A stretch of 63,979 nt of DNA, filler included, from an uncultured bacterium (GTDB taxonomy: Bacteria; CAYJOG01), in NCBI GenBank assembly GCA_964371695.1. It is 6 parts of 6 records of this genome, joined end to end, with 100 filler letters (N's around TTAATTAATTAA, not from the genome) between each part and the next. Parts side by side here need not be neighbours in the genome. Positions count along the whole stretch, not along the records: positions 56,214 to 63,979 come from CAYJOG010000115.1; 5 more parts are not named here. One strand, written 5' to 3'. Shown in pieces: positions 4,971 through 63,979 of this stretch. Positions within the stretch are counted from its first letter, which is position 1. Each line of letters starts with the position of its first letter. A program made the position numbers and the translations under genes. Below the pieces are notes generated by a model. It made no database searches and was not told the DNA's origin. It saw only the letters and a list, made by a program, of their open reading frames with translations.

Positions 4971-4982
4971 GCACCGATGATA

Positions 4983-5172: not shown

Positions 5173-5270
5173 GCGGGGGAGCGAGAAAACGCCCGCCCCA
5201 AAAAAACAAAAAAAAAAAAACCNNNNNNNNNNCGTCAAGCTTTGAACCTGCGAAAGGAAACCCCTTTGCC

Positions 5271-8329: not shown

Positions 8330-10215
<1,886 letters not shown>

Positions 10216-11231: not shown

Positions 11232-11331
11232 NNNNNNNNNNNNNNNNNNNNNNNNNNNNNNNNNNNNNNNNNNNNTTAATTAATTAANNNNNNNNNNNNN
11301 NNNNNNNNNNNNNNNNNNNNNNNNNNNNNNN
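11232..11331. other. Artificial contig linker (also 22512-22611, 33763-33862, 44964-45063, 56114-56213)
   Basis: Identical N44-TTAATTAATTAA-N44 spacers with stops in all six frames; genes are truncated on both sides; contig lengths decrease in order. Confidence 0.98.
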
Positions 11332-15042: not shown

Positions 15043-15200
15043 GGTTGCGTGGGGGGAGGTGTCCACATTCTCGAGAAACCACCGTCACCAGCATTCTGCG
15101 AATGCGGCGTCATGATACCCTGCGCATGCTTTTAAACACCTCACCCTTTCCTAAAGAAGCGAACGGGAAAGACGATAAGTCCCTCAAGGAGGGTAGAGTA

Positions 15201-16973: not shown

Positions 16974-17122
16974 GAGAATCCCCCTTGGATGAGTTTGTTC
17001 TGAATGGAAGTCTGGGGAGTGTAGCGGCAAAAAGAACCTGTCCACAAACGAAAGGAGGTTCGTCTGTGGACAGGCGCGCAGGCCACGGAGGGCAAAGCCC
17101 TTTTTTTGCCGGACGTCCCACT

Positions 17123-17339
17123 CATACCAATGAACATTCAAAACATCAGAATGTTCATTGGTTTAATTGGCCTTGCCGTTTGTCGTGAACGGCTGCAGCG
17201 CTTGTTGCGCCTCGTTGTTCGAGCGAATTCATCCATGAATTCATACCAATTCACACCCGCACCACTTCACTTCGTCGCACCCGTTTCCCAACCGGTTCAT
17301 CGCTCAGGGTTAATGCTGTTTCGGTTGAGAATTGGCATC
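17123..17339 (-). repeat. Five-hairpin repeat element, internally deleted (no hairpin 4)
   Basis: Shares GAATTCATGGATGAATTC and GCCGTTC-ACGAC-AAACGGCAAGGCCAAT with the 38341 copy; the arm region matches 48878-48970. Confidence 0.85.
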
Positions 17340-17418
17340 ATTTGAAAAATCAATAAATAATCAAGCAGCCTTTTTTGTGGTCTCACGGGGCGCTTTTTGT
17401 TAGTGTGTCCCTTCGGCC

Positions 17419-18375: not shown

Positions 18376-18556
18376 TGCCCTCTCCCTCAGGGAGAGGGCG
18401 CCAAGGGTTGAGCAAGGCGAAACCCGAGGCGGGTGAGGGGGTAAGCCCGGAACATAAAAATCGGAGCTTTGGCCCCTGGTTCCGCTCCCCCTCACCAGAC
18501 CACAGCCTCACTTCGTTCGGCTGTGGTCTGCCCTCTCCCTCAAGGGAGAGGGCAAG
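18376..18556. repeat. CCCTCACC/CCCTCTCCC-GGGAGAGGG paired palindromic element
   Basis: Inverted pair of TGCCCTCTCCC.{4,5}GGGAGAGGG; reverse-complement homolog at 57877-58058; single units at 22450, 37376 and 49097. Confidence 0.85.
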
Positions 18557-18640
18557 TGACGGAAAGATGACAATGAGCAACACCCCGCCACAACCAAAGA
18601 TTACCCCGCCGTGAGCACTTCGCGCTCGCCCGCTGCCCAT

Positions 18641-18822
18641 AATCTGTTTTAAAAGTCCGTCATGGACTTTTAAAACCCAACGCCTTCAGGGGCAAAGCCC
18701 TCTCGGCGTGGCGAAAACCTGCGCTTTTGAAAGCTACGGTTTTCGAATGCGGTCATCCCTGACCGCAAGAGCCTGTTTATTGTGCGCCCTGTTCTACATA
18801 ACGCACTTTTACAACAGGCTCT
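18641..18822 (-). repeat. Five-hairpin repeat element overlapping the dxs 3' end
   Basis: Colinear with 57469-57651: GAGCCTGTT..AACAGGCTC, GCGGTCAGGGATGACCGC, CGAAAACC..GGTTTTCG, GGGCTTTGCCC, AAAAGTCC-ATGAC-GGACTTTT. Confidence 0.9.
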
Positions 18823-21352: not shown

Positions 21353-22348
21353 ATGGCCCGCGCAATCCCGCTGGAATTAGAGCCCAACAACCTGCGGCTG
21401 AAGGCGGGCAGCACCGAGCCGGTGCGCGTGGTGGTTTCGGCCAAAGACGCAAACCTGAACGGCGACTGCGCGGTGCGCGTGACCCACGGCAAGCTGATAA
21501 ACAGCGAGGCTCTGGTGGGCGGCAAGCTGGCGGTCACCCTGATGCCTCCCAAACGCAGCGGCGTGCTGGCTGTGAGCGTAAGCTCCGAAAAAGACGGCCG
21601 CAAAACCCTCTACCGCGCCGGTCTGCCGGTGGACACCACCCCCCTGCGGTTTGTGTGGGAGCTGTTTGAGAGCCTGGGTGTGGCCCTGGTGCTGGGGATC
21701 TTCATCAAGGCGTTGCTGTTCCAGCTTTTTTTCATTCCCAGGGGCAGCATGGAGCCGACGCTCTATGAAGGCGACCGGCTCATCGCCACGCCGTTGCCCT
21801 ATCACCTGCGCAAACCCCACCGGGGCGAGGTGGTGATCTTCCGCGCGCCGCCCCAGGCCAGCCCCCATCGCAACCGCGACGAAATCGACCTTTACCTGTT
21901 CGAGATTTCGCTGCCTGGGTTCTTTCGCAAAAACGACTACCTGGAATTTGCCGGGCGCAAGTGGTGGTTTCCCTATCGTCTGAAGCACCGGGTGGACGAC
22001 TACATCAAGCGCTGCGTGGCGGTGGAAGGCGACACGGTGCAGATCAAGGGCGGGTTTGTTTACGTCAACGGCAAACGCCAGAACGAACGGGTGATGACCG
22101 AAAACGGCCCCTCCAAAGGCAAGACGACCTATGTGCTGGCCGAGCGGCCAGCCGACACCTACATCCGCGTGAACGGTTTTGAAATCACCGAGCCGGTGAA
22201 GGTGCCGAAGGGTTATGTGTTTGTGCTGGGCGACAACCGCAACAACAGCCACGACAGCCACAAGTGGGGTTTCCTGAAAGAAGACCTGGTGATGCAGAAG
22301 GCGCTGTTTCTCATCCTGCCCCTGGGCCGCATGGGGCGGATTCCGTAA
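21353..22348 (+). CDS. lepB: Signal peptidase I with an N-terminal extension
   Basis: IPRGSMEPTL (Ser), DYIKRCVA (Lys), GDNRNNSHDS; follows rplS. Confidence 0.93.
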   Translation: MARAIPLELEPNNLRLKAGSTEPVRVVVSAKDANLNGDCAVRVTHGKLINSEALVGGKLAVTLMPPKRSGVLAVSVSSEKDGRKTLYRAGLPVDTTPLRFVWELFESLGVALVLGIFIKALLFQLFFIPRGSMEPTLYEGDRLIATPLPYHLRKPHRGEVVIFRAPPQASPHRNRDEIDLYLFEISLPGFFRKNDYLEFAGRKWWFPYRLKHRVDDYIKRCVAVEGDTVQIKGGFVYVNGKRQNERVMTENGPSKGKTTYVLAERPADTYIRVNGFEITEPVKVPKGYVFVLGDNRNNSHDSHKWGFLKEDLVMQKALFLILPLGRMGRIP

Positions 22349-22388
22349 GAGCCTGTTTTAAAAGTCCGTCGTGGACTTTTAAACACAG
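22349..22388 (-). repeat. Terminal fragment (hairpin 5) of the five-hairpin element
   Basis: GAGCCTGTTTTAAAAGTCCGTCGTGGACTTTTAAA directly after the lepB stop. Confidence 0.75.
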
Positions 22389-22611
22389 CGACATAAAAAA
22401 TGCCGCATGCTTGGGAAACAGGCAGATGGGGCGGGCGGGCTTTTCCATTACCCTCTCCCGCGCCCCAGCGTGGGAGAGGGTGGTTTTGACTGGCGACGCC
22501 AGTCAAAACCGNNNNNNNNNNNNNNNNNNNNNNNNNNNNNNNNNNNNNNNNNNNNTTAATTAATTAANNNNNNNNNNNNNNNNNNNNNNNNNNNNNNNNN
22601 NNNNNNNNNNN

Positions 22612-22671
22612 GAGCCTTGCTTGAGCAAAATGGGTTGAGAAAGTCCAGGAGGGACTTTCTCAACACCCTGA
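22612..22671 (+). repeat. 3' end of the five-hairpin element at a contig start
   Basis: TTGAGAAAGTCC-AGGAG-GGACTTTCTCAA followed by CACCCTG. Confidence 0.75.
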
Positions 22672-22727
22672 TACAGGAGGGTGAACTGGGGTATACTGAA
22701 GTTTACCGAATGTCTTGGGGAGCCAGC

Positions 22728-25700
22728 ATGTCAAGGCGGCTTCGGTGGGGTTTGGCGGCCCTGCTGGTGGTGGGGGCGTGCGTCTCTTTACCGGCCCCCA
22801 AGTCCGCCGAAGTCAAGAAATACAGCTCCGACGCCTACAGCGGCTACGTTGTTCCCCCCAACCAGGCCTGCAACAACCTCAGCCCCATCGCCTACATTCA
22901 GGATTTTGACGCGGGCAAGGGCCAGACCACCAAGCCCATCGAAATCCGCGGCCAGCTTTTTTTGCAGGCCGACACCATCAACAACAACACCGTGGTGCTG
23001 GAGTGCCCCAACGGCAACGCCCTGCCCGTGCTGGGTCACGAGTCCATCACGCCGGCCCTGCCCCCCGGCAGCGGCAGCGCGCCAGACTGCACCGCCGAGT
23101 GGGACGTGGCCACCTTTCTCACCACCGGCACCTTTGCCGGCGCGGTGCCCGATGGCTGGTGCGAACTGGTGATCACGGCGGGCACCAACACCTGGCATTT
23201 TCCCAATGCGTGGCGCAAAGACACCGTGCCCCCCACCCTGGCCGTGCAGGGGGCGCTGAAGACGGGCCGCGTGGACGGCACCCCCGGCGGGCGGGGTCTG
23301 GTGCATTTTCTGGTGGACGAAGCCAACAACGGTTTCAGTGACCCCGACGGCACCTGCAACACCTCTGCCTGCAACCAGACCGCCAACTTTTTTGGCGCAG
23401 AGGTGTATTACCACCTCGAAGGCACGGCCTGGGGCAGCAAGTCGGGCACCACCAGCGGCGGCATGACCGAGTTTGAAGGCCCCACCGCCAGTCTGGTGGC
23501 CACCAACCGCAACGACCCCGCCCTGCCCAGGGCCTGTTATGCCCTGCGCCTGCTGGACACCGCCGCCAACCTGAGCGGCTTTGGCGACCCCAACGGTTTT
23601 GACGCCGTGCCCGGTGGCGGCGACGACGTGACCGTGGCGAACAGCGCCAAGCCCCGGTGCTTTGTGCCCGACGGCAAAAACCCGGAAGTCACCAAGGTGG
23701 AGGCGTACTTCGACAGCACCCTGCTCACCCAGAACATGCTGCCCGTGGCCAGCGACGGCGCGTGGGTGGTGAACAAGAACGAAGACGAAGCCCCCCTTGC
23801 GCACCGCGACAAAATCGTGTATCTCAAAATTCATGTCTCCGAGCCGTTGTTTGACCCGATCTCTGGCGGGGGCAACCGCTTTGGCTCACCCGCCGCCATG
23901 GCCGATGGTCTGGACGGTGACAACGACGGCAGCATTGACGAAGAAGTGCTCAACAACGCCGACGACGACGCCGACGGCGTGGCCGATGAAGACCTGCGCC
24001 TGACCGGCTGCACCGTTACCGCAGCGGTGGCGGGCGACAAGATTGACAACGACTGTGACGGCTACATCGATGAAGACAGCACCGGCGGCACCGACACCGG
24101 CACCGGCGTGCTTTGCGGCTCCAAGGAAAAAATGCTCTACACGCAAGACGCCACCTGTGTGCCCACGCCGCAGATTTCCATTCAGGGTGCGGACCCCAAC
24201 GGCACCATGTTCAGCCAGTCCATCACGCTTTACAGCACCCCCAGCGCGTTCCGCTCGCTGAGCGAAACGGTGTATGTGTTCCCCTACAACGTGGGCAACA
24301 TTTCGTCTGAAGACGACTACACCATCACGGTTTCCATGGCCGACGGCGTGGGCAACGCCGTGATCAACGCCGTGCCGCTTTCGGGCGGCGTCATCCGCGT
24401 GGACAACACGCCGCCCACCTACAAGGTGAAGTATTACAAAGACACTGTGCTGCTGAGCGAGCTGAACAAAACTGGCAGTCCCCTGCTGCCCCTGGCCGGA
24501 CAAAGCACCGTGAGCATCAAGATTGACGCCTATGACCCCAACAGCGGTCTGGTGGAGGACGTGCGTGTTCCCTTGGTGGCGGTGGATCAGCCCGGCACCA
24601 CCGATGTCACCAACCAGACCGCCAGCGCCCTGTCGGGCACCAGCACCACCGTCTTTTCCACGTCTTATCTTGTAAACGCCGCCACGGGGGGCACTTATAT
24701 CGACGGCGTCGCCAGTGTTTCCATCAAGGGCAAAGACCTGGGGGGAAACTGGACAGGCGGCGGCGCGGGGGTTTACATCGCGCCCAGCGAGGGCGACCAG
24801 TTCCGCATTGACACCTCGCCCCCCAGTCTGGGCACCATTTCGCTCTATGCGCCGCTGGACAAGGCCGTGGCGGTGAATGAAAGCAACGGCAAACCCACCA
24901 CACAGCCCGTTTTGCGCTGGAACAACAGCGACGCCGACGCCACCAGCTACAAGGTGGAAATCGCCACGAATAACACTTACACCAGCAGCGCCATTGTGCG
25001 GCAGACCAGTGTGCTGCTCACCAACTATTCCGTGGGGTTGTTGGCCGACAACGAAAAGGACGGCCCCGTGTGCGCCGTGCAGGCCGACTGCGACGCCGCT
25101 TATGGCGCAGACAGCGGCTTTGAATGCGAAGCCAGCGTGGGCAAGTGCCGTGAGTATTACTACTGGCGTCTGGCCCCCATGGACGTGGCGGGCAACACGG
25201 CGGCCTTCACCAGCCCGTCTTACCGTTTTCGCGTAGACGCCCAGCCGCCCCAGATGTCCGTGGAGCTTTACAACAACTACGCCACCGGCGTGTTCACCAA
25301 CCCCCTCACCATGACCAGCCAGGGTTATCCCGTGGCCATTGCGGGCACCGTTTATATCCGCCTTTCCGCCAGCGAGGCGCTGGGCAGCCTACCCACCTTC
25401 AGCATCAATCAGGTGGGCGAAACCGACGCGCTGAATCAGCTTGCCACCGAGACCGCCCCTGGCTCTGGTGTGTATTACGGCCAGTACATCGTCCAGCCCG
25501 ACAACGGCCTTGGGTTTCAGGACGGCTTGGCGAACATCACCTTCAGCGCTCTGGACACCAGCGGCAATGAGGCGACAAACGCCACGCCCAACACCGGCAG
25601 CCAGTTTCTGATCGACACCAAACCCCCCAACATCAGCGCGCTCACGGCCAATCCATCTCCGGCGGGCAATGTCACGGTGAGCTTCAGCATGGTGGTGAGC

Positions 25701-28418
25701 GAGCAGATTCAGACACCGCTCAGCGCCAATATCACCGGCGATTGCCTGGGGGGCGCGGGCACAGCCCCCCTCACCTATGTGAACGCCACGGCGTTTCAAT
25801 ATCTGGGGTCTTACAGCGTGACGGCCGCAGACACCACCTGCACCGCCACGGTCACCGTCACCGTGACGGACTTCGCCAATCAGGTGGCCACCCGGCAGGC
25901 CACTTTTCAGGTGGACACGCTGGACCCCGACAGCCCCGAACTGGACCTGCCCCAGGACAACACCGACGTGAACGTGTCCCCCTCCAAAATTCTCACGCCC
26001 CTTTTTGTGTGGGGGAGTGTTTCGGACGCCGTGAGTTATCACATGGAGCTGGCCACGGCGCAAACCTTCACCAGCGGCAGCATTCTCATTGACGAGTCGG
26101 GTCTCACCGACACGCAGATATTCGCGCCCAATCCGTTGCCCAATCCCAATGGGGATTATTTCTGGCGGGTGCGGGCGGTAGACCTAGCGGGCAACACCAC
26201 CCAGAACCCACAGGTGTTCAAATACACCACCGACAACACGCCCCCGGCGGCCCCCACCTTCAACGCCTCTGTGCCCGCCACCACCAAAAGCGCCAGCGTC
26301 ACCATCAGCGGCCTCGCCGAGGCCAAGTCCATGGTCAAGCTCTACCGCAACGGTCAGGTGGTGCAGGTGCTCACACCCGAAGGCACCCTGGACGCCATCC
26401 GCGCCAGCGACGCAGGGGCCTTTACCTTTACCTTTGACAACGACGGCGACGGCGTGAAGGACGAAGACGGTTTTGACGGCCTGGACAATGATGAAGACGG
26501 CCAGACCGACGAAGACCCGCCAGACTATCCCCTCTTTCCCGGCATCAACCAGCTCACCGCCAAGGCCACCGACAGGGCGGGCAACGAAGGCCCCCTGAGC
26601 GCGATCAAGGACATCTCGCTGGACACCGGCCCGCCCAAGTTCAACGTGAGTTTTTACAAGGGCGACCCCGGCATTGCGGGCCAGACGCTGGTGCCCACGG
26701 GCGCAGACGGTCTGCCCCAGGTGGGGGAGGGGCAGGTGTGGTTCAAGTTCACCGCCAACGAAGACCTGAAAGACGACATCTGCACCTATTCCATCAACCA
26801 GCCGGGGACATCCGATGTGCTGGGTCAGGCATGCATTCTCATCAGCCCCGCCAACAAGCGGGAGTTCAAGGGCAATTACACCGTGAGCGCCGCCAACGGC
26901 GGCACGTTTGTGGATGGTCAGGCCACCATCACCCTCACCGCCACCGATCTGGACGGCAACACGGCCACCGACACCGTGCCGGAGGTGGGTCGGGCGTTTC
27001 GCATTGACACCAGCGGGGCCACGTTTGAGGCAGAGTTTTTTCGTGAGGGTGGGCTGAACGAACGCCTGCCGCGTGATGCGAATCTGGTTTACATTGCCAG
27101 ACAGGGGCCGGTCTATATCAAGGTCATCGCCAGCGAGGGACTCAAAGACGGGGCCACGCTCACAGTCAACCAGCCGGGCACCGCCGACGACACCGTGGCC
27201 ATCACTCCCCTCACTGGCAGTCAGACCATTTTCAAAGCGCTCTACAACGTGCAGGCGGCGGATGGCGGGTTGTATGTGGACGGTCTGGCGAATCTGGCGT
27301 TCAGCGGAGAAGACCTGGCGGGCAACACGTTTGCCGCCGTGGTTCCCCTCACCGGGCCGACTTTTGCGCTGGACACCACGCCCCCCGCACCACCCATATT
27401 GGGCCTGCCCGCCACACAGCCCAACTTCTCGAACATGGCCGTGGCGGTGACAGGCGAGCCTTTTGGCACGGCGGTCATCCGCCACAGCCGCAAGATGCCA
27501 GACATTGTGGTGACGCCCGGCGACACCCTCGACAACGACGACGACCTGCGCACCGACGAAGAACCCGGCGGCGTGAACGGCCTGGACGACGACCAGGACG
27601 GTTTCATTGACGAGGATGTGTCCAACACCCCCTGCGCACTGGGGCAATATCTCTCCGGCTCGGTGTGTGTCCTGGCCACCAGCGACAACCGTCTGGTTTT
27701 CTCACAGGAGCTGGACGAAAACGGCCAAGCTGCGGTGGACGTGACCACGCTGGCGAACGGCCTGAACCTGCTCACCGCCTATCAGGTGGACATGGCGGGC
27801 AACAGCAGCACGGCGGCGGTGGCGGCCTCGGTCACCGGCACGGGCATTGAAATCATCGCCCTGCAGCACAGTTTTCCCAAGGCGGGCTGGCAGCCGGTGA
27901 GCATTCCCCTGTTCAACCCCGTGGCCCCCAAGCCCAAGGCCGGTTTTCAGCTCAACACCGATTTTGTCAGTGTGGAGCAACCCCCGCTGAACCAGGGCGG
28001 CGTGCAGGATCCGCTGACCCTTTACCGGGTTGATTCCAAAGTGGCCAACATGCTGCCGGGGGTGGGTTATTGGGCCTATCTGCCCACCGCGCCCACCACG
28101 GTGACCCTCAACGGCCAAAAGAGCAAAGTCAGTGTGTTGAACCTGAAAAAAGGCTGGAACCTCATTGGCCCGTCTTATAACCAGACCATCGCCTGGAACG
28201 CCAACGTGAAGGTGGGCAAGACGGGCAGCAGCACCGAGGTCTATCCGCTGGACAGCGCCGGGGCCGAGGCGATGATCCACACCAGCCTTTACATCTATGA
28301 CCCCCAGACCGGCGAATACAGCGCCATTGCCCCCGGCGCGGGCGACTTTCTGCCCTTCATCGGTTATTTCCTGCTGGCCAAGGAAGACTGCCAGTTGATT
28401 CTGCCCGACGCGCCCTAG
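22728..28418 (+). CDS. Giant secreted/surface protein with Ig-like and FN3-like repeats and acidic DxDxDG metal-binding motifs
   Basis: Signal peptide, DxxGN..D.TPP repeats, DNDCDGYIDE-type motifs, C-terminal LKKGWNLIG domain; about 1896 aa. Confidence 0.85.
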   Translation: MSRRLRWGLAALLVVGACVSLPAPKSAEVKKYSSDAYSGYVVPPNQACNNLSPIAYIQDFDAGKGQTTKPIEIRGQLFLQADTINNNTVVLECPNGNALPVLGHESITPALPPGSGSAPDCTAEWDVATFLTTGTFAGAVPDGWCELVITAGTNTWHFPNAWRKDTVPPTLAVQGALKTGRVDGTPGGRGLVHFLVDEANNGFSDPDGTCNTSACNQTANFFGAEVYYHLEGTAWGSKSGTTSGGMTEFEGPTASLVATNRNDPALPRACYALRLLDTAANLSGFGDPNGFDAVPGGGDDVTVANSAKPRCFVPDGKNPEVTKVEAYFDSTLLTQNMLPVASDGAWVVNKNEDEAPLAHRDKIVYLKIHVSEPLFDPISGGGNRFGSPAAMADGLDGDNDGSIDEEVLNNADDDADGVADEDLRLTGCTVTAAVAGDKIDNDCDGYIDEDSTGGTDTGTGVLCGSKEKMLYTQDATCVPTPQISIQGADPNGTMFSQSITLYSTPSAFRSLSETVYVFPYNVGNISSEDDYTITVSMADGVGNAVINAVPLSGGVIRVDNTPPTYKVKYYKDTVLLSELNKTGSPLLPLAGQSTVSIKIDAYDPNSGLVEDVRVPLVAVDQPGTTDVTNQTASALSGTSTTVFSTSYLVNAATGGTYIDGVASVSIKGKDLGGNWTGGGAGVYIAPSEGDQFRIDTSPPSLGTISLYAPLDKAVAVNESNGKPTTQPVLRWNNSDADATSYKVEIATNNTYTSSAIVRQTSVLLTNYSVGLLADNEKDGPVCAVQADCDAAYGADSGFECEASVGKCREYYYWRLAPMDVAGNTAAFTSPSYRFRVDAQPPQMSVELYNNYATGVFTNPLTMTSQGYPVAIAGTVYIRLSASEALGSLPTFSINQVGETDALNQLATETAPGSGVYYGQYIVQPDNGLGFQDGLANITFSALDTSGNEATNATPNTGSQFLIDTKPPNISALTANPSPAGNVTVSFSMVVSEQIQTPLSANITGDCLGGAGTAPLTYVNATAFQYLGSYSVTAADTTCTATVTVTVTDFANQVATRQATFQVDTLDPDSPELDLPQDNTDVNVSPSKILTPLFVWGSVSDAVSYHMELATAQTFTSGSILIDESGLTDTQIFAPNPLPNPNGDYFWRVRAVDLAGNTTQNPQVFKYTTDNTPPAAPTFNASVPATTKSASVTISGLAEAKSMVKLYRNGQVVQVLTPEGTLDAIRASDAGAFTFTFDNDGDGVKDEDGFDGLDNDEDGQTDEDPPDYPLFPGINQLTAKATDRAGNEGPLSAIKDISLDTGPPKFNVSFYKGDPGIAGQTLVPTGADGLPQVGEGQVWFKFTANEDLKDDICTYSINQPGTSDVLGQACILISPANKREFKGNYTVSAANGGTFVDGQATITLTATDLDGNTATDTVPEVGRAFRIDTSGATFEAEFFREGGLNERLPRDANLVYIARQGPVYIKVIASEGLKDGATLTVNQPGTADDTVAITPLTGSQTIFKALYNVQAADGGLYVDGLANLAFSGEDLAGNTFAAVVPLTGPTFALDTTPPAPPILGLPATQPNFSNMAVAVTGEPFGTAVIRHSRKMPDIVVTPGDTLDNDDDLRTDEEPGGVNGLDDDQDGFIDEDVSNTPCALGQYLSGSVCVLATSDNRLVFSQELDENGQAAVDVTTLANGLNLLTAYQVDMAGNSSTAAVAASVTGTGIEIIALQHSFPKAGWQPVSIPLFNPVAPKPKAGFQLNTDFVSVEQPPLNQGGVQDPLTLYRVDSKVANMLPGVGYWAYLPTAPTTVTLNGQKSKVSVLNLKKGWNLIGPSYNQTIAWNANVKVGKTGSSTEVYPLDSAGAEAMIHTSLYIYDPQTGEYSAIAPGAGDFLPFIGYFLLAKEDCQLILPDAP

Positions 28419-33762: not shown

Positions 33763-33862
33763 NNNNNNNNNNNNNNNNNNNNNNNNNNNNNNNNNNNNNN
33801 NNNNNNTTAATTAATTAANNNNNNNNNNNNNNNNNNNNNNNNNNNNNNNNNNNNNNNNNNNN

Positions 33863-37453: not shown

Positions 37454-38332
37454 CTAATTCCCTGCCCTTTGATAGACGCTGGGCTGAATGTAACGCAGGG
37501 GGTGGCGGATGCGCGTGAGGCTTTCGGAATGTCCCACCACCAGAATGCCGCCGGGGTGCAGGGCATCGTGAAAGCGCTGCACCAGTTCCTCTTGCGTGGG
37601 CACGTCAAAATAAATCATTACGTTGCGGCAAAAGATGAGGTCGAACCGCCCCTGCATGGGCCACGGCCCGGCGAGGTTGAGCGGGCGAAAGCGCACCAGC
37701 CGCCGGGGGAGTTCGTTCACCCGGTAACCCAGTTCCTTGCCCTGCCTGCCGCTGCTGAAATAGGCCGCCCGCCAGTGGGGGGGCACCTCGCGCAGGGCAG
37801 TGGCGGGGTAGACCCCGGTGCGGGCTTTTTCCAGCATTCGGGCCGAAATGTCGGTGGCCAGGATGAGGGTGTCGGTGAGTTTTTCCGGCAGCATGTTCTC
37901 CATCATCAGCATGGCCAGGGAATAGGCCTCTTCGCCCGATGAACACCCGGCGCTCCACACCCGAAGGCGGTTTTTCTTTTCGCCCAGCCAGCGGGGGATG
38001 AGCGTGTCCCGCAGATACTGGAAGTGCGGGGCCTCTCGCAAAAAAAACGTGAGGTTGGTGGTGAGCAGGTCCACCATGATCTTCAGCTCTTCGCCGCTCA
38101 GGTCGGTTTGCAGATAATGCAGGTAATCCTCATAAGACCGCATGCCCAGATCGCGCAGGCGTTTGCCCAGGCGCGCATGCACCATCTCCCGTTTGCCATC
38201 GCCCAGGTGAATGCGGCACTGGGTGTGCAGACGCTTGGCTATCCACGCGAAATCCTCGTCGCTGAGGGGCTGACGATCAAACCAGCTTTTGGGCAGTTCG
38301 TTGCCGCCGGGAAGGGGTAAGGATTCGGTCAT
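37454..38332 (-). CDS. cheR: Chemotaxis methyltransferase
   Basis: TTNLTFFLRE, WSAGCSSGEE, IFCRNVMIYF, GHSES. Confidence 0.97.
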   Translation of the reverse strand: MTESLPLPGGNELPKSWFDRQPLSDEDFAWIAKRLHTQCRIHLGDGKREMVHARLGKRLRDLGMRSYEDYLHYLQTDLSGEELKIMVDLLTTNLTFFLREAPHFQYLRDTLIPRWLGEKKNRLRVWSAGCSSGEEAYSLAMLMMENMLPEKLTDTLILATDISARMLEKARTGVYPATALREVPPHWRAAYFSSGRQGKELGYRVNELPRRLVRFRPLNLAGPWPMQGRFDLIFCRNVMIYFDVPTQEELVQRFHDALHPGGILVVGHSESLTRIRHPLRYIQPSVYQRAGN

Positions 38333-38340
38333 GGAAATCC

Positions 38341-38601
38341 TACCGATTCCAATTCAAAACTGCATGAATTGGAATCTTTATATTGGCCTTGCCATTCGTC
38401 GTGAATGGCTGCGGCCCGGCGCGGCGCAGGCAAAGCCCGCTTGCGCCGCGAACACCTGCGGCGCTGATTGCGCCTCGGTGTTCGAGTCGAATTCATCCAT
38501 GAATTCATACCAATTCTTGTCCTCTCTTTGGTTTGTTCCTCTTGGGCTGACTAACCATGCTTGGTCTGGTTCCAAGCAATCTCGATTTAGAATTGGTATC
38601 A
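38341..38601 (-). repeat. Five-hairpin repeat element inside the chemotaxis operon
   Basis: Starts at the MCP stop codon with an ATACCAATTC..GAATTGGTAT arm; CATGGATG loop; CGAACACC..GGTGTTCG; GCGGGCTTTGCCTGC; GCCATTC-ACGAC-GAATGGC. Confidence 0.88.
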
Positions 38602-44963: not shown

Positions 44964-45069
44964 NNNNNNNNNNNNNNNNNNNNNNNNNNNNNNNNNNNNN
45001 NNNNNNNTTAATTAATTAANNNNNNNNNNNNNNNNNNNNNNNNNNNNNNNNNNNNNNNNNNNNTTCTCC

Positions 45070-47321: not shown

Positions 47322-47486
47322 AGAACTTATCTCATAAATCCCTCCATGGATTTATTCGACCGCCGTGGGCGAAAATGAATTCCGCCCACGAGCGCGAAAA
47401 TCTGCGGGTTTTCAACCCTCCGGTTTTCGAGGCAGGTCCTCCTGACCTGCAGGAAGCCATCTCATCGGTATTATGAGATGGCTTCT
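47322..47486 (-). repeat. Five-hairpin repeat element abutting the radA start
   Basis: GAAGCCATCTCAT..ATGAGATGGCTTC / GCAGGTC-AGGAG-GACCTGC / CGAAAACC..TTGAAAA..GATTTTCG / GTGGGCG..CGCCCAC / ATAAATC-CATGGAGG-GATTTAT. Confidence 0.85.
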
Positions 47487-47487
47487 C

Positions 47488-48828
47488 ATGGCGCGGCCCA
47501 AAACCACATTTGTCTGCACCTGCTGCGGGGCCACCTTTATGAAATGGGCGGGCCGCTGCACCGCCTGCGGCGAGTTCAACAGCATCGAGGAACTGGCCGA
47601 CCCCGGCCTGACGGTGAAGATACACGGCAGCGCCATAGAGCCCCGCTCGGTGCCGCTGGCGGAGATTCCCGCCGAGACCGGTTATGCAATCGCCACCGGC
47701 GAAGACGAACTGGACCGCGTGCTGGGGGGCGGTGTGCGCCCCGGCGGCGTGTATCTGCTGGGCGGCCCGCCGGGCATCGGCAAAAGCACCCTGGCGCTGT
47801 CGCTGGCGTCGCGTTTTGAAGGCGGTGTGTTGTATGTGAGCGGCGAAGAAGCCGGGGGACAGGTGCGCGAACGCCTGGACCGCCTGGGCGAGGCGGGGGC
47901 GGACCTGCGGTTTCTGGCCAGCGGATCGCTGGAAGGCGTGATGGACGAAATCGCGTCGCTTTCTCCCGCGCTGGTGGTGCTGGATTCCATCCAGACCGTG
48001 GCCACCCACGAGGCCCCCGGCGGTGCGGGCAGCGTGGGTCAGGTGCGTGAGTGCGGCCAGCGCCTCACCGCCCAGGCCAAGGTGATGGGCCACGGCCTGC
48101 TGCTCATCGGCCACGTCACCAAAGAGGGCCAGTTGGCCGGGCCGCGCATGTTGGAGCATCTGGTGGACACCGTGCTTTATTTCGAGGGGGAAGACCACGG
48201 CGTGCTGCGCCTGCTGCGTTCGTTCAAAAACCGTTTTGGCAGCACCAACGAGGTGGGACTGTTCGAGATGACACAGGCCGGGCTGAAGGGGGTGAGCAAC
48301 GCCAGCGAGTATTTCCTCAGGGGCCGTCTGGCCGCGCCGGGCAGCGTGGTGACGGTGGCGGTGGAGGGCCTGCGGCCGCTGATTCTCGAAATTCAGGCCC
48401 TCACCAACCCCAGTGGTTACGCCACGCCCCGGCGCACGGTCACGGGCCTGGACCCCAACCGCGTGGCCATGGTGGCCGCTGTGATGGAGCGCCACATGGG
48501 CCTGCGCCTGAGCGACCACGACCTGTTTGTGAACGTGACCGGCGGCGTGCGCCTGAGCGACACCAGCGCCGACCTGCCGGTGGCCCTGGCGATATGGAGC
48601 AGCTTTCACCGCAAGACCCTGCCCGCAGACCTGGTGAGTTTTGGCGAAATCGGCCTGACGGGCGAGGTGCGGGCGGTGGGCCACGCCGAAAAACGCCTCA
48701 AAGAGGCCAAGCAGATGGCTTTTTCCACGGCACTGTGCCCCCACAGCCACGCCGCGCCGGGGGCGGACCTGGGCCTCACGCTGTTGCCCCTGCGCTCGCT
48801 GAATGATCTGTCTGAACACCTGCCGTGA
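47488..48828 (+). CDS. radA: DNA repair protein RadA/Sms
   Basis: CTCC..CTAC zinc finger, GPPGIGKST, DSIQT, GHVTKEG, KNRFG, GEIGLTGEVR. Confidence 0.96.
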   Translation: MARPKTTFVCTCCGATFMKWAGRCTACGEFNSIEELADPGLTVKIHGSAIEPRSVPLAEIPAETGYAIATGEDELDRVLGGGVRPGGVYLLGGPPGIGKSTLALSLASRFEGGVLYVSGEEAGGQVRERLDRLGEAGADLRFLASGSLEGVMDEIASLSPALVVLDSIQTVATHEAPGGAGSVGQVRECGQRLTAQAKVMGHGLLLIGHVTKEGQLAGPRMLEHLVDTVLYFEGEDHGVLRLLRSFKNRFGSTNEVGLFEMTQAGLKGVSNASEYFLRGRLAAPGSVVTVAVEGLRPLILEIQALTNPSGYATPRRTVTGLDPNRVAMVAAVMERHMGLRLSDHDLFVNVTGGVRLSDTSADLPVALAIWSSFHRKTLPADLVSFGEIGLTGEVRAVGHAEKRLKEAKQMAFSTALCPHSHAAPGADLGLTLLPLRSLNDLSEHLP

Positions 48829-48971: not shown

Positions 48972-49181
48972 TAGTTCATTTTGAGTAAGTTTATGCACAA
49001 TTTTCCGCCTTACCCGCCTGAGCGCGAAGCGCGAAATAGCCGGGGTTTATTCAATAGCAAAAAACCACTGCTTTTTGATTTTTGCTTATGTTTTGCCCCT
49101 CACCCGGTCCTACGGACCACCCTCTCCCCATAAGGGAGAGGGAACGATGTCAGAGTGCATAAACTTATGCAAAATGAACTA
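48972..49181. mobile_element. MITE-like element with 27-bp terminal inverted repeats
   Basis: TAGTTCATTTTGagTAAGTTTATGCAC ... GTGCATAAACTTAtgCAAAATGAACTA; similar end at 13401-13427; contains a CCCTCACC/CCTCTCCC unit. Confidence 0.7.
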
Positions 49182-55958: not shown

Positions 55959-56213
55959 GGGGATAACCTGATTGTAGGGCGCACCGCCGCCCTGGTGGGC
56001 CGAATGTTGCTTAACTCCTCTGCGGTGAATAGCAGGGTGTTTATCAACACCCTGCTGGTGGTTCATTCGACTCAAAATGAGTAGCAGCGATGTCCCCATC
56101 GCTGCTGTCATAGNNNNNNNNNNNNNNNNNNNNNNNNNNNNNNNNNNNNNNNNNNNNTTAATTAATTAANNNNNNNNNNNNNNNNNNNNNNNNNNNNNNN
56201 NNNNNNNNNNNNN

Positions 56214-56748: not shown

Positions 56749-57849
56749 ATGGCCATGTTTGTGATTTCGCCCAGTTATCCCCAGTCGCGGGCGGTGGTGT
56801 TGGACGGCGCGGCGGTGCTGCGTCAGAAACTGGGGCTGGAAGTGAAAAATACGATGCGCCAGCCTGAGCCGGATGAAACTTTTCTGGACGCACTTGCGCA
56901 GCGGGTGGCCACGGTGCAGGCTTTGCTGCGACACCCCGGCCCGGCCCTGGGCTGGGCGGCGCGGGGGGGCCTGGGGGCCTATGAGGTGGCGCTGGAACTG
57001 GACAAAAAACTCAGCCGGGCGCGCCCCCGGTTTTTGAAATCGGTGCTGGGTTACAGCGACATCACGGCGCTGCACCTGTTGTGGCGCAAACACCGCCTGG
57101 GGCCGTCATTTTTGGGCCCCCACACGGGGGGGATCGCGAGTGGGCGAGACCCGCTGAGCCTTCAGGCTTTTCGCCTGCTGCTTGAGCCGGGGCCGGTGGC
57201 GGTTTCACTCAAGGGCCGGTGGCTGGGCGACACCACGCGCCTGCCCGCCCAGGCAGAATTGTTGGGGGGCAACCTCACGGTGCTGGCCAGCACCCTGGGG
57301 GGCCCGCTGTGGCAAAACCAGCCGGGACGGTTTGTGTTGTGCCTCGAAGACATTGACGAGGAACCGTATCAGGTGGACCGCGCCCTCATGGCCCTGAAGG
57401 GGGCGGGTGTGCTGAAGCGGGCGGTGGCGGTGGTGTGGGGCGATTTCACCGGCTGCGAAAAGCCCGAAGAGCCTGTTTCTGAATTGCACCATGTGGAACA
57501 GGGTGTCATAGAAACAGGCTCTTGCGGGACAGGGATGTCCCGCCCCAAAAACCGAAGTGTTGAAAACACTGAGGTTTTTGCCCGCCAAGGGGGCTTTGCC
57601 CCCGATGGCGGTGAGTTAATAAAGTCCAGGAGGGACTTTATTAACAGACCCAAAGTCAAATTCGGCCCTGAGTTTGAAGACGTTTTCCGCCACAGGATTT
57701 TGTCACTGGGTGTGCCGGTGCTGCGCACGGATCACTTTGGCCACGGCGCGCATCAGGGTTTGTTGCCGCTGGGTGTGAAGGTGGCCCTGGGCCGGAAAAA
57801 AACAGGTCTGGAGTTGAGGATGGAGGGAGTCAGAGCAAAATCTTCCTGA
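56749..57849 (+). CDS. ldcA: LD-carboxypeptidase (peptidase S66) with an in-frame repeat insertion
   Basis: ARGG, GYSDIT (Ser), GGNL, LEDIDE (Glu), FGHG (His); start approximate. Confidence 0.85.
   Translation: MAMFVISPSYPQSRAVVLDGAAVLRQKLGLEVKNTMRQPEPDETFLDALAQRVATVQALLRHPGPALGWAARGGLGAYEVALELDKKLSRARPRFLKSVLGYSDITALHLLWRKHRLGPSFLGPHTGGIASGRDPLSLQAFRLLLEPGPVAVSLKGRWLGDTTRLPAQAELLGGNLTVLASTLGGPLWQNQPGRFVLCLEDIDEEPYQVDRALMALKGAGVLKRAVAVVWGDFTGCEKPEEPVSELHHVEQGVIETGSCGTGMSRPKNRSVENTEVFARQGGFAPDGGELIKSRRDFINRPKVKFGPEFEDVFRHRILSLGVPVLRTDHFGHGAHQGLLPLGVKVALGRKKTGLELRMEGVRAKSS
57469..57651 (+). mobile_element. Five-hairpin repeat element inserted in frame (183 bp, 61 codons)
   Basis: Colinear with the 18641-18822 copy; AT-richer than the flanking codons; ends GAGCCTGTT...AACAGACCC. 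Confidence 0.88.
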
Positions 57850-57876
57850 ACGTAGACGCAGAAAGCCGTCTGAAAA

Positions 57877-58058
57877 TGCCCTCTCCCTGAGGGAGAGGGC
57901 AGGCTGGGACCAAACGAAGGTGAGGTCTCAGCCGGGTGAGGGGGGAAAGAAAACGCCTGCCGAAACAGGGGTTTGGGAAAAACCAGCCGCTCCCCCTCAC
58001 CCGCCTTGGGTCTCGCTCTGCTCAACCTGCGGCTGCCCTCTCCCTCAGGGAGGGGGCA
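57877..58058. repeat. CCCTCTCCC paired palindromic element
   Basis: Reverse-complement homolog of 18376-18556, again between convergent genes. Confidence 0.85.
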
Positions 58059-58103
58059 AATGACGGCACCTCATTTTTTGACTACATCAAGCTTGGCTTT
58101 GCC

Positions 58104-60191: not shown

Positions 60192-60809
60192 ATGCCCGAT
60201 TTTCCGTGTCTGATATTGGCCACCGGCAACCTTTATAAGGTTGAGGAACTGAAGCCCCTGCTGGCGGGTGTGCCCGTGGTGCTGAAGGGCCTGAAGGATT
60301 TTCCTGAGGCGGCTTGTCCTGACGTGGAAGAAACCGGGGCCACGTTTGCCGAAAACGCCCGGCAAAAGGCCCTGGCTTATGCCGCGCGGTTGCCTTATAT
60401 CGTGTTAGCAGAAGACAGCGGCCTGTGTGTGGATGCCCTGGGCGGTGCGCCGGGGGTGTTGAGCGCCCGATTTGGAGAAGTACCCGGCGGCCCGGCCCTG
60501 ACCGATAAAGACCGCAACGCCCTTTTGCTGCAAAAACTCGCGGGCGTCACCCACCGCCGCGCCCATTATTTCTGCGCCATGTGTCTGGTGCAGGGGGAGC
60601 GGGTGCTGGCAGAGGTCTCCGGGCAGGTGGACGGCGAAATCGCCCTGAGTCCACAGGGAGAAGGCGGCTTTGGTTATGACCCCCTGTTTGTTCCCCAGGG
60701 ACATGAGCAGACCTTTGGCCAGTTGCCCGCTGCGGTTAAGGCCGCCATCAGCCACCGGGCCAGGGCGGCCCAGTCTCTGGCGGCTTGTCTGCAAAGGCTG
60801 GTGGCATGA
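60192..60809 (+). CDS. rdgB: Non-canonical purine NTP pyrophosphatase
   Basis: ATGN..K, EETGATFAENA, EDSGL, GFGYDP, KAAISHR. Confidence 0.95.
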   Translation: MPDFPCLILATGNLYKVEELKPLLAGVPVVLKGLKDFPEAACPDVEETGATFAENARQKALAYAARLPYIVLAEDSGLCVDALGGAPGVLSARFGEVPGGPALTDKDRNALLLQKLAGVTHRRAHYFCAMCLVQGERVLAEVSGQVDGEIALSPQGEGGFGYDPLFVPQGHEQTFGQLPAAVKAAISHRARAAQSLAACLQRLVA

Positions 60810-63800
60810 GGCAAAAGTTTGTTGCGGTGTTTGCCCTGTGGATGGGGGCGTGGCTGGCGGGGGCGCAGGTTTTTGCGTCAGCGCCGGTGCCATTTTATGA
60901 AGGCGCGCACGCCGGATTTCGCAACACGCAGGAAACTTTGGCCCGCCTCACATTTGTCAGGGGAGGCAAAAAAACGCCCCTGGCGGATTATCAGGAACCC
61001 CTGCGGCTGCTGGTGGAAGACCCGGACCAGACCGCCCCGCAACTGCGGGTGGTGTTGCAGACCGGCCTGGGCGACGCAGAAACACTCACACTCTGGCCGC
61101 TGCGGCCGGGTCTGTATGCCGCCGACGTGACAGCGCAAAAGGCAGAGGGCGGCTTTGTTCCCGGCAACGGGTTTCTGGAGGCCGGTTCCCGCGACACGGT
61201 GACGGCGATTTTTTCAGACGACACCCCGGGCGGCGGCAAACCCCTTCAGTCGGTGGCGGCGTCTTTTCGTCTGGCCCAGACCGGGCGGCTCACGGCGCAC
61301 CTGGCCGACGGCAGTGATCAGCTGACCTACGTGGTTCCCCAGGAGGGCGGCCTGCTGGTGCGGGTGCTGGATCAGGACGAAGACGAAGACGGGGCGGCCA
61401 AGACCGACACCGTGCCCGTGTTGTTTGAAACCCGTGCCGGTGACAAGGGTGTGCTGATGCTGGCCGAGACGGTGATCCCCGGCCGTTTCGAGGCCATTTT
61501 GCCCACGGCCCACGGCGTGGCCCAGCGCAACAACGGGCGGCTGGAACTGGCGGCGGAAGACGCGGCGACTTTTTCCTATCTGGACCTCGCCTCGGCCACC
61601 GGCAAAACACTCTCGGCGGTGTTGCCGCTTCAGTCGGCCCATGATGCCCACGCCTATCTGCGGGATGGCAAAAAAGAAGTGTTCGGCCTGCCGCTGGAAA
61701 AAAACGTCTCCCTGCTGCTCTCGGATTATGACCTGGACCACGATCTGAAAGGCGAAACGGACTCGGTGGAAGTGCTGCTGAGCACCTACCGGGGCGACAT
61801 GGAGCGCGCCCTGGCCAAAGAAACCGCCACGCCGGGGGTTTTTGAGGTCACGTTCATGACTTTTTATGGCCAACCGCTCATCAGCGACGGCCGGGTGTCT
61901 CTGCTGGGGGCGGACAGTCTGGCGGTGGAACTGGAAGACAAAAACAACGTGCATCCTTGGGCCCCCGTCACGCGCCGGTGGGTCTACGACGCCGCCAGTC
62001 CGGCGCAGCTCAGCGTGTCGGGCGTGAAGGGCGCGGTGCGTGGCCCCACCGAAGTGGTGTTTCAACTCAAGGACCTGAACCTGGACGAAGACGCCCTGCC
62101 CGCCACCGATTTTGTCATTCTTACCGTTCGCTCCGATCCGAGTGGTTATGAAGAAACAGTGCGATTTGACGAAACCCACGTGCCCGGCGAGTTTGAAGGC
62201 CGCCTGCCGGTGGGGTTCAAGCCCGACCTCACCGGCTCCATGGCGGTGGAGCCGGGGGATTTTCTGGTGGCGGAATACACCGATGAAGTCTCCTGGCCCA
62301 GCCCGCAGCCCAAAACCCTCACGGCGCGGGTGCAGGTGCTGGACGACCCCACGGTGACGGTTGTCGCCGCCAGCAGGACGCTTTCGGGCAACCGCCTTGC
62401 GCTGAACGAAGCCACCCAGGTGGTGTTGTCGGGGGACGGCCTGAAGTATTGGAACAACGCGCCTCAAAAACTGGAGGGCTGGTGGACCGCTCCGGGCGGT
62501 GAAAAGGAAAAAGCCGTTTTCATGCAGACCCGCGAAGGAGCCTATGAGGCCACCCTGCTCACCCACCACACCCAGGCCAAACCGGGCAACGGCGCGGTGG
62601 AGGTGCTGGGCGGCGCGGACGTGGTGCTCAAGCTGGATTATCCCGGTTTGCCCACAAAGGGAAAACTCACGTTCCACCCTGGCCGCGACGCGGTGATTCA
62701 CTTGGCCGATGGTCGGGGCAAGGACAGCCGCCTGCCCCGCGTGCTTTACAGCGCCGGGCCGCTTTCCGTGACGGTGGTGGACCTGGACAGGGACACCGAC
62801 GGAAAGGGCGGCACCGACACGCTCACCGTGGAGTTCGCTGCAGGCACGGCCAAACCCGGCCACAAAAACAAAGCCATGAAGGGCGATGTGGAGCAGGTGC
62901 GGCTTAAGGAAACCAACAAACCCGGTGTGTTCAAGGGGCTGGTGGCTGTGGCCGCAGGCAAAGGCAAGGCCGCAGACGACGTGTTGAGTGGTCTGGCGGA
63001 CCTGGGTGTGACGGTGCGTTATGCCGACAATGCCCCGCTGTTGCTGAAATCCGGGGCCACGCTGGCCTATCTGCCGTTCTGGTCGGGTCAGGCGCGCCAT
63101 GTGCTCAAACAGGGCCACACCACGCTGGAAGCAGGCCCCACCGGCGAAATGACACTCACGCTGCACGATCCGGACCTGGACCACGACGGCGCGCCCGCCA
63201 CTGAGCAGGTGAGCGCCACGTTGCGGCTGAAGGGGCAGGATGAAGAAAGCCTGACGCTGAAGGAAACCGACCTGCCCGGCGTGTTCAAGGCCACCATGCC
63301 CTATGCCATCGGCACGTGGTTTGACCGCGACGGCGTGGTGCAGTTCACCGGCATGGAGCCGGTGTTGCTGAGTTACGCCGACAGCGCCGGAAGAGAAGTG
63401 CTCACCACGCAGACCCCCGTGGTGCTGAACAACCCCACCGATCCGCAGCCCACCGGCCCGGCCGATGATTTTTTCCTCGTGGGTCTGGCGGACATCGTGG
63501 CGGGCAACTTCAACGTGCAGGGGGCCATTGCGCCGCTTGAGATCATGGACGACTTTCACCGGGGGCCTTATGGCGTGGGCAAGGCCAGTTTTTATGCCCT
63601 GGGCAAGATCAAGGGCGTCACGCTGCTGGAGGCCAGTTATGACAGCGAGCGCCGCCGCTCAGACGCCACCGCCAGCGCCACCCCCGCGCCCGACGCCTAT
63701 TACCCCGTTTATGGCGACACCTCGCACACCAGTTACGACGCCGTGCCCCTGGGCAAACTCTATGTGCGGGTGACCCGCAAGCTGCTGGATTTTGTGCTGG

Positions 63801-63979
63801 GGGATTACACCACCACCGCCAGCGCGGGGGAGTTTTTTACCTACACCCGTGCGCTCAGCGGCCTGAAGGCCCAATACACCCACCGCAAGGCCACCGTGCT
63901 GGCCTTTGCCGCCCAGGTGGGACACACCCAGGCGCTGGACCGCATTCAGGGCCAGGGGTTGAGCGGGCCGTATCAGTTG
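60806..63979 (+). CDS. Large secreted/outer-membrane repeat protein, open to the window end (more than 1058 aa)
   Basis: ATG overlaps the rdgB stop; signal peptide MRQKFVAVFALW..; repeats D.D.D.D..TD.V..L.ET..PG.F; YYPVYGDTS..GKLYVR region; absent from the ORF track because it has no stop. Confidence 0.85.
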   Translation, partial: MRQKFVAVFALWMGAWLAGAQVFASAPVPFYEGAHAGFRNTQETLARLTFVRGGKKTPLADYQEPLRLLVEDPDQTAPQLRVVLQTGLGDAETLTLWPLRPGLYAADVTAQKAEGGFVPGNGFLEAGSRDTVTAIFSDDTPGGGKPLQSVAASFRLAQTGRLTAHLADGSDQLTYVVPQEGGLLVRVLDQDEDEDGAAKTDTVPVLFETRAGDKGVLMLAETVIPGRFEAILPTAHGVAQRNNGRLELAAEDAATFSYLDLASATGKTLSAVLPLQSAHDAHAYLRDGKKEVFGLPLEKNVSLLLSDYDLDHDLKGETDSVEVLLSTYRGDMERALAKETATPGVFEVTFMTFYGQPLISDGRVSLLGADSLAVELEDKNNVHPWAPVTRRWVYDAASPAQLSVSGVKGAVRGPTEVVFQLKDLNLDEDALPATDFVILTVRSDPSGYEETVRFDETHVPGEFEGRLPVGFKPDLTGSMAVEPGDFLVAEYTDEVSWPSPQPKTLTARVQVLDDPTVTVVAASRTLSGNRLALNEATQVVLSGDGLKYWNNAPQKLEGWWTAPGGEKEKAVFMQTREGAYEATLLTHHTQAKPGNGAVEVLGGADVVLKLDYPGLPTKGKLTFHPGRDAVIHLADGRGKDSRLPRVLYSAGPLSVTVVDLDRDTDGKGGTDTLTVEFAAGTAKPGHKNKAMKGDVEQVRLKETNKPGVFKGLVAVAAGKGKAADDVLSGLADLGVTVRYADNAPLLLKSGATLAYLPFWSGQARHVLKQGHTTLEAGPTGEMTLTLHDPDLDHDGAPATEQVSATLRLKGQDEESLTLKETDLPGVFKATMPYAIGTWFDRDGVVQFTGMEPVLLSYADSAGREVLTTQTPVVLNNPTDPQPTGPADDFFLVGLADIVAGNFNVQGAIAPLEIMDDFHRGPYGVGKASFYALGKIKGVTLLEASYDSERRRSDATASATPAPDAYYPVYGDTSHTSYDAVPLGKLYVRVTRKLLDFVLGDYTTTASAGEFFTYTRALSGLKAQYTHRKATVLAFAAQVGHTQALDRIQGQGLSGPYQL

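Follow-up and report, generated by a model that had tools for sequence, protein, structure and literature searches.

In Rickettsia, Rickettsia palindromic elements (RPEs) are found in frame inside open reading frames (ORFs) dozens of times and encode a conserved peptide, as described in the available part of PMC10969869. The same part mentions occasional in-frame intragenic copies of ERIC, BOX, QMITE1 and other elements, and for the enterobacterial RU elements (ERIC/RU-1 to RU-3) in-frame fusions with ORFs are recorded on occasion in the accessible sections of PMC2759123. Repetitive extragenic palindromes (REPs), which are marked by a GTAG or CGTC tag, have a length of 20-40 bp according to the corresponding excerpt of PMC3733652. 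Here we describe a dispersed repeat of serial hairpins from an uncultured bacterium (assembly GCA_964371695.1), one copy of which lies in frame within ldcA, a gene for a putative S66 LD-carboxypeptidase. The whole stretch of DNA that was analysed, hereafter the window, comprises 63,979 nt and consists of six separate draft contigs, so that the element copies found in it sit on different contigs.

Alignment of the LdcA protein with its homologues showed that the gene carries 186 nt of extra DNA (57469..57654, + strand), corresponding to 62 codons (EPVSELHH...DFINRPK). This segment is absent from all nine aligned homologues, including four (P0002-P0005) with 54-61% identity over the full length. 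The homologues read CEKPEG-KFGP, whereas LdcA reads CEKPE-(62 aa)-VKFGP, and taking out the 186 nt leaves CEKPEVKFGP, a single substitution away from the CEKPEGKFGP of the homologues. The initial annotation had predicted a gap in S66 homologues at this position and an insert that is in frame and free of stops. Both were found, the frame being open and reading EPVSELHHVEQG...DFINRP; its estimate of 61 aa or 183 nt gained has to be corrected to 62 aa and 186 nt. The repeat copy proper is delimited by homology to other copies. Contigs derived from other copies part from the ldcA copy at 57467/57468 on its left side and, on its right side, in most cases at 57647, in agreement with the pairwise alignment to the copy at 18640-18824, which gives a repeat proper of approximately 180 nt (57468..57648, +; covariance model (CM) score 215.8 bits). 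The remaining 5-6 nt of added DNA resemble the bases directly preceding the element, and the register of the insertion is ambiguous by a few bases, as CCCGAAG (57463-57469) resembles CCCAAAG (57649-57655). These two heptamers agree at 6 of 7 positions and could represent a target duplication with one mismatch, while the flanks of the copy in dxs (see below) show nothing comparable. The G+C content at third codon positions (GC3) is 0.52 in the insert vs 0.76 in the rest of the gene, as expected of recently acquired DNA.

The coding sequence of ldcA (56749..57849, +; S66 LD-carboxypeptidase, LdcA-like) specifies 366 aa plus stop, taken to begin with MAMFVISPSY. Outside the insert the ORF is intact over 304 codons and shares 54-61% identity with orthologues from end to end. 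Pfam detected both Peptidase_S66 (N domain, 52.5 bits vs a cut-off of 25) and Peptidase_S66C (C domain, 84.8 bits vs a cut-off of 23.7); the insert cuts the Peptidase_S66C match in two, and the alignment to the Protein Data Bank (PDB) is likewise split exactly there. Ser103, Glu200 and His332 are invariant columns in an alignment of 57 S66 sequences, which bears out the earlier statement that the motifs of the Ser-Glu-His triad are intact, and the nearly invariant columns of the S66 family are all kept in LdcA, triad included. We take these three columns to be the triad of 1zrs, which agrees with the titles of the PDB entries 2aum (Ser115Ala) and 2aun (His285Ala). The AlphaFold model of LdcA has a mean pLDDT of 84.3, with 250 of 366 residues at 90 or above, and Foldseek returned E. 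coli LdcA 5z01 (E 4e-21, TM 0.80) and P. aeruginosa LdcA 1zrs (TM 0.82) as best matches. By both Pfam domains, the triad columns and the modelled LdcA fold, the protein is predicted to be an S66 LD-carboxypeptidase. The only long low-confidence stretch of the model consists of insert residues 243-285 (pLDDT below 50), located between strand 225-232 and helix 309-316, and by sequence alignment the insert falls between residues 256 and 264 of E. coli LdcA. The surface-loop position that had been proposed is consistent with this model, which places the insert in the loop that leads from the strand with GDFTGC at its end to the helix preceding FGHG.

An identical 366-aa protein (P0121) is recorded on six contigs in NCBI and ENA, the longest of 43,887 nt. 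In addition, one archive annotates just a 217-aa C-terminal fragment of this LdcA (P0001), and a frameshifted 215-aa version (P0122) stems from a single contig of 1584 nt; gene calling and assembly seem to be disturbed by the insert and the repeats. No RNA data were present among the sequencing runs listed as containing ldcA. The LdcA of one relative, P0002, carries a different insert of 54 aa at another loop (residues ~165-220). Its motifs LSPLGRG and LLPRGEKG could be encoded by perfect palindromes like the CCCTCTCCC...GGGAGAGGG hairpins of the window; when the window was searched with this insert by tblastn, the only significant similarity was to the LdcA core that both proteins share.

For the characterization of the repeat itself, the ldcA copy was folded and compared with shuffled sequences. 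As RNA, its minimum free energy was -105.2 kcal/mol compared with -58.8 ± 4.2 kcal/mol for the shuffles (z -11.1), and folding as DNA gave a z of -12.8; in neither case was any of 200 shuffles as stable. The structure is a chain of five hairpins on the + strand. Hairpin 1 (57467..57523) has an outer stem AGAGCCTGTTTCT / AGAAACAGGCTCT around a small inner hairpin, where the left terminal repeat forms base pairs with a copy of the right terminal repeat located inside the element; it is separable, since some other copies start only at 57523/57524. Hairpin 2 (57524..57543) reads GCGGGACA-GGGA-TGTCCCGC and includes an ATG that has been taken as the start of protein P0245 in a relative. Hairpin 3 (57546..57580), with the pattern AAAACCG.AG..TT.AAAA ... 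TTTT, is the best conserved segment across the three best copies, and its pattern matches exactly these three copies in the window, where none would be expected by chance. In hairpin 4 (57582..57611) the tip GGGCTTTGCCC is conserved and the lower stem varies yet stays complementary. Hairpin 5 (57615..57645) consists of a perfect stem of 13 bp with a 5-nt loop and the tip AAGTCC-AGGAG-GGACTT.

To locate further copies, a covariance model (R1) was built from the two best copies and the window was scanned at E<=0.01. Of the 13 rows obtained, six are full-length loci and two are partial loci, the other five being echoes of the palindromic hairpins on the opposite strand. The initial annotation had counted about eight other copies, which is roughly right; there are seven other loci, five of them full length. 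The ldcA copy (57466-57651, +) scored 215.8 bits over its full length, closely followed by a full-length copy overlapping dxs (18640-18824, -; 214.2 bits), which is the closest other copy with 73% identity and a fold z of -8.9. BLASTN of 57469-57651 against the window aligned this copy end to end (18821-18643, 73.5% over 181 nt, E 1.7e-28) and confirmed the colinearity with 18641-18822 noted before. It also found 47454-47334 (68.5% over 127 nt, E 1.4e-9), which aligns with the central two thirds of the ldcA copy and belongs to a full-length, divergent copy just upstream of radA (start 47473) at 47327-47488 (-; 52.7 bits, fold z -8.4). A further divergent full-length copy lies between xseA and ilvC (8367-8518, -; 36.1 bits, fold z -8.7). 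Folded individually, the three copies at 18640-18824, at 47327-47488 and at 8367-8518 all give the same chain of five hairpins, again with 0 of 200 shuffles as stable in each case. Two weaker full-length matches are located between a gene for a methyl-accepting chemotaxis protein (MCP) and cheR (38379-38533, -; 19.0 bits, E 4.7e-4) and, next to an N run, upstream of a methylmalonyl-CoA mutase gene (4984-5183, +; 15.6 bits, E 0.004). The former has hairpins 3 and 4 in common with the ldcA element and forms a sub-family with the latter, the arms 5067-5171 and 38412-38516 being 92% complementary. The partial loci are hairpin 5 alone, cut by the assembly at the very start of a contig (22631-22664, +; 30.7 bits), and a short form at 22355-22406 (-; 21.6 bits), in which hairpin 5 is followed by the full right end AACAGGCTCT and which abuts the stop of a signal-peptidase gene. 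Intergenic copies occur in either orientation. Among the neighbouring genes, the products Dxs, RadA and the signal peptidase were assigned from Pfam. Each element locus measures 150-200 nt, amounting to eight in 64 kb, and none contains a long ORF in any of the six frames.

At the short copy (22346-22356), the TAA stop of the lepB-like signal-peptidase gene (21353-22348) shares one base with the terminal repeat AGAGCCTGTT. Multi-hairpin arrays of a related sub-family at 17030-17345, 38330-38545 and 4975-5195 combine hairpins 3 and 4 with other modules (GAATTCATGGATGAATTC, GATTCCAATTC...GAATTGGAATC), which suggests that modules are shuffled between elements. Ten stretches in JGI metagenome contigs carry the pattern common to the three best copies; none is a member of the family, their G+C content being 29-44% with no hairpin chain. 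Rfam gave no match at gathering score in the window and nine matches on the element at E 0.25-7.8, far below the gathering scores.

The ldcA and dxs copies both begin with the 10-bp sequence AGAGCCTGTT. Its exact inverse AACAGGCTCT closes hairpin 1 and stands at the end of the short copy (22347-22356); in several other copies it comes directly after AACAG. Both the ldcA copy (AACAGACCCA) and the dxs copy (AACAGATTAT) have a degenerate right end. The element is modular, some copies being without hairpin 1 and others consisting of hairpin 5 alone. A common feature is the combination of conserved tips (GGGCTTTGCCC in hairpin 4, AAGTCC-NNGAN-GGACTT in hairpin 5) with lower stems that vary but remain complementary. 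In hairpin 5, compared over 13 pairs in five copies, 96.9% of the 65 cells were paired, vs 35-55% in slid controls; in five pairs both partners had changed, in no pair just one of them, and the covariation score was reached by 0 of 500 shuffles. This count was made without gaps, since the MAFFT alignment of the two best copies contains 1-nt misalignments by which 16 pairs appear falsely broken; likewise, RNAalifold with three sequences misaligns hairpin 1 of the third copy. Because the compensation is strictly Watson-Crick with no G-T intermediates, these five sequences suggest that it is the DNA, and not an RNA, in which complementarity is maintained. The route could be either palindrome-correcting template switching or mobilisation in the form of folded single-stranded DNA.

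We then considered whether the family as a whole is directed at proteins. Only one of the eight window loci, that in ldcA, is internal to a gene; a second takes the place of a C-terminus, that of Dxs. The final 14 residues of this protein (EPVVKVRYVEQGAQ) are encoded by the first 43 nt of the dxs copy (18780-18822, -), and the Dxs stop codon (18777-18779) is borne by the element, inside hairpin 1. This tail is read in the same element frame as the LdcA insert, and the 77%-identical orthologue P0125 ends differently. This copy, described before as mostly non-coding, is thus partly coding. In the dxs copy, the frame used in LdcA is interrupted by three stops. Of the 36 frames of six copies, 11 were stop-free compared with 9.6 ± 2.3 in dinucleotide shuffles, and 671 of 2000 shuffle sets reached 11; a depletion of stops in the family, as for an element built for translation, was therefore rejected. 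When the 62-aa insert was searched against 1.84 billion protein representatives, six matches at E<=1e-3 were obtained, with P0245 as the one other carrier besides the protein itself. The first 38 residues of P0245 are 74% identical to the insert; as a signal-peptide-like stretch follows further in, its start is probably miscalled. P0244, P0246, P0247 and P0248 are internally repetitive and were judged unrelated. A region search of 5.8 billion proteins returned only LdcA itself, and the blanks of these peptide searches partly reflect the scarce database coverage of the lineage. Taking the 64 kb together, the proposal that the family invades proteins in the manner of RPEs claims more than the data support, given one gene-internal locus in eight, a closed frame in the sister copy and stops that are not depleted. 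The analogy to RPEs is fair for the outcome in ldcA; for the family as such it finds no support.

To verify the insertion, metagenome contigs were mapped across its ends. The left junction is crossed by error-free contigs from three runs, X1 (56914-57575), X2 (57263-57577) and X3 (56954-57535), and the right junction by error-free contigs from two, X1 (57581-57849) and X2 (57616-57849), in line with the junction check that the initial annotation had called for. The summed contig depth, about 4-6 in the flanks, increases to 190-450 within 57563-57599, with peaks in hairpins 3 and 4. This roughly 50-fold figure is not a copy number; the rise indicates that the element is highly repeated in these samples.

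The explanation that we consider likely is that a non-autonomous mobile repeat inserted in ldcA and, being stop-free, is read through as a tolerated loop of 62 residues, with selection acting as a filter. That the insertion is real and repeat-derived appears nearly certain, and that the insert is tolerated and translated as a surface loop is reasonably probable. According to this explanation, a five-hairpin repeat of ~180 nt with 10-bp terminal inverted repeats (AGAGCCTGTT and AACAGGCTCT), mobilised in trans by a separate enzyme, would have landed in ldcA between the codon for Glu240 and that for the residue which is Gly in the homologues; transposition itself is presumed here. The 186 nt happen to be stop-free in the landing phase, so that the gene stays open and translation would read through. 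The product would carry a largely disordered excursion of 62 residues in the loop that links a core strand to the helix preceding the catalytic His, with the modelled S66 fold and the Ser-Glu-His triad untouched. Insertions out of frame or with stops would be removed by selection, the element not being built for translation, and the hairpins would matter at the DNA level.

Several observations speak against this explanation. About 27-30% of element frames are open by chance, so a dead gene could look alike, and that the insert-bearing LdcA is made and active is something we infer. No empty-site allele was found in any run, and mobility is deduced from dispersal only. No transposase was detected among the 31 window ORFs scanned with Pfam, there is no clean target-site duplication at either ldcA (6 of 7 positions) or the dxs copy, and the right terminal repeat of the ldcA copy agrees with its complete version in just 7 of 10 positions. 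The element is not covered from end to end by any one Logan contig, a gap of 5 nt remaining between the two X1 pieces, as is expected of 31-mer contigs in a repeat; and all four runs holding ldcA come from one study.

The missing contig across the whole copy, together with a highly repeated element that breaks assemblies and with several window contig ends that fall in repeats, would fit an assembly artefact in which a repeat copy was misjoined into ldcA. This is largely refuted and carries almost no weight, because error-free contigs from independent samples run across each junction, the flanks are the halves of a single gene, equally oriented and contiguous against orthologues, and the identical protein is present on six contigs in two archives. 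More serious is the idea that ldcA has been inactivated or crippled and that its open frame is luck, the gene being a young pseudogene or dispensable through a paralogue, with nothing selected. An open, in-frame outcome is indeed not rare, as stop-free element frames are no more frequent than in shuffles, and one deposited variant, P0122, is frameshifted. On the other hand, the remaining 304 codons are intact and 54-61% identical to orthologues over the full length, the nearly invariant columns and the triad are kept, the core of the model has a pLDDT above 90, and the same 366-aa sequence occurs on six contigs, whereas P0122 may be an assembly error of its single 1584-nt contig. We therefore regard inactivation as unlikely.

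Removal of the segment after transcription or translation, by an intron, an IStron or an intein, would make the frame irrelevant, and an RNA of this segment would be very strongly structured. We consider this most improbable, as no Rfam family reaches its gathering score in the window and the matches on the element are at chance level (E >= 0.25), Pfam finds two S66 domains only and no intein domain, and other copies are intergenic in either orientation. It is also very unlikely that the inserted peptide has been co-opted to give LdcA a new property, for example a loop for binding or for localisation. The copy is not of very recent origin, since overlaid copies are mostly 90-95% alike in short pieces, and its stems carry their own compensated variants; however, disorder is predicted for the insert, its GC3 still differs from the gene's and the peptide has no relatives beyond element copies. 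A broader version of the insertion hypothesis would see here a second, independent RPE-like system in a deep-branching uncultured phylum, with modular five-hairpin elements whose fixed tips and strictly Watson-Crick compensated lower stems would imply reading as folded single-stranded DNA by an HUH/RAYT-like or other enzyme, and which would repeatedly rewrite proteins (the LdcA loop, the Dxs C-terminus, possibly the P0245 N-terminus and the different, palindrome-like insert of P0002). This can be put forward only tentatively and in our view is doubtful.

Other repeats and ORFs were noted in the window. A second repeat family forms GCCCTCTCCC-loop-GGGAGAGGGC hairpins at 57875-58060, 18377-18560, 49120-49142 and 22440-22480, one large palindromic copy being located directly 3' of ldcA. 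More hairpin families (GGCGTCATTCCCGCGAAAGCGGGAAT... and AGCAGCGATG-loop-CATCGCTGCT) occur at or beside contig ends (13219-13400, 45065-45250 and 56030-56111), and repeats appear to break this assembly. The ORF 15045-15680 encodes a SocA/Panacea antitoxin-like domain (E 1e-25). Two ORFs are very long, one of 1933 aa (22617-28418) with Asp-rich repeats (GACAACGAC...GACGAAGA) and one of >1065 aa (60785-63979) that runs off the end and has no Pfam match. The six contigs are joined by five identical artificial spacers, N runs around TTAATTAATTAA, at 11232-11331, 22512-22611, 33763-33862, 44964-45063 and 56114-56213; genes flanking a spacer are not genomic neighbours. A further N run lies near 5223-5232. 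The ldcA insertion is situated on the last contig, ~1.2 kb past its start.

The position of the host was estimated from Dxs and from the samples in which ldcA was found. Dxs has one relative at 77% identity, while all remaining matches are at <=52% and derive from a mix of phyla, those with names being Clostridia, Nitrospinota and cyanobacteria. The sequencing runs containing ldcA are sediment metagenomes (four runs), and a groundwater run, X5, had a 0.05 share of words. Since the Dxs relatives are distant and the gene was found in sediment metagenomes, the host is judged to be an uncultured, deep-branching sediment bacterium; the same Dxs comparison upholds the earlier view that the lineage is different from Rickettsia. 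A scan of genome contigs with the LdcA protein gave 80 distant loci, mostly from Bacillota, and none of the close relatives. An unclassified metagenome-assembled genome among them (L072/G001) was ruled out as a relative, its best Dxs-like match being 30%.

The locus provides a clean case, found in multiple samples, in which a selfish hairpin repeat would add 62 residues to a conserved enzyme with the predicted fold unbroken. It lies outside the lineages so far described and shows how new loop sequence enters a protein and which S66 positions are tolerant. For annotation, it is relevant that the insert splits the Pfam match and that one archive holds the 217-aa fragment only. The family may be the more informative part, with its conserved tips, compensated stems and separable modules, and together with the genome it could reveal the moving enzyme. 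LD-carboxypeptidase was not mentioned among the 10 top-ranked of 578 literature matches on palindromic, insertion and repeat elements.

In comparison with RPEs, as presented in the available part of PMC10969869, the similarity is that short dispersed palindromic repeats lie in frame in housekeeping genes, with a peptide added and the fold kept. The host is unrelated, however, a deep uncultured sediment lineage, with 60% G+C (60.6% in the window). The element, likened to RPEs by description, consists of five serial hairpins instead of one long palindrome; furthermore, only one of eight loci is gene-internal, the frame used in LdcA is interrupted by stops in the sister copy and the family shows no depletion of stops. 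Like REPs and BIMEs, which are mobilised by RAYT transposases (Y1 HUH), the family consists of hairpin repeats with no obvious target duplication and of mosaics of several palindromic units, and its strict Watson-Crick stems would suit an enzyme that recognises folded single-stranded DNA. Modularity is found in BOX elements and BIMEs as well. The three best copies read CCGAAG, CCGTAG and CCGGAG, with no GTAG or CGTC tag in a fixed place and CGTAG present in one copy only, and no RAYT gene was seen in the 64-kb window. With transposable elements of the miniature inverted-repeat type (MITEs; ERIC/RU-1 to RU-3, BOX, Correia, QMITE1), as far as the available sections of the sources describe them, it shares small size, lack of coding capacity, candidate terminal inverted repeats, multiple and mostly intergenic copies, and occasional in-frame fusions. 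The difference is that here conserved tips are combined with covarying lower stems among copies of one genome, a pattern that was not found described for MITEs in the accessible parts of PMC10969869 and PMC2759123. The LdcA protein itself has the same two Pfam domains, triad columns and modelled fold (TM 0.80-0.82) as 5z01 and 1zrs, and differs by its 62 extra residues. The element represents a new family in a new lineage, and its insertion in ldcA behaves as already documented for MITE- or RPE-like elements.

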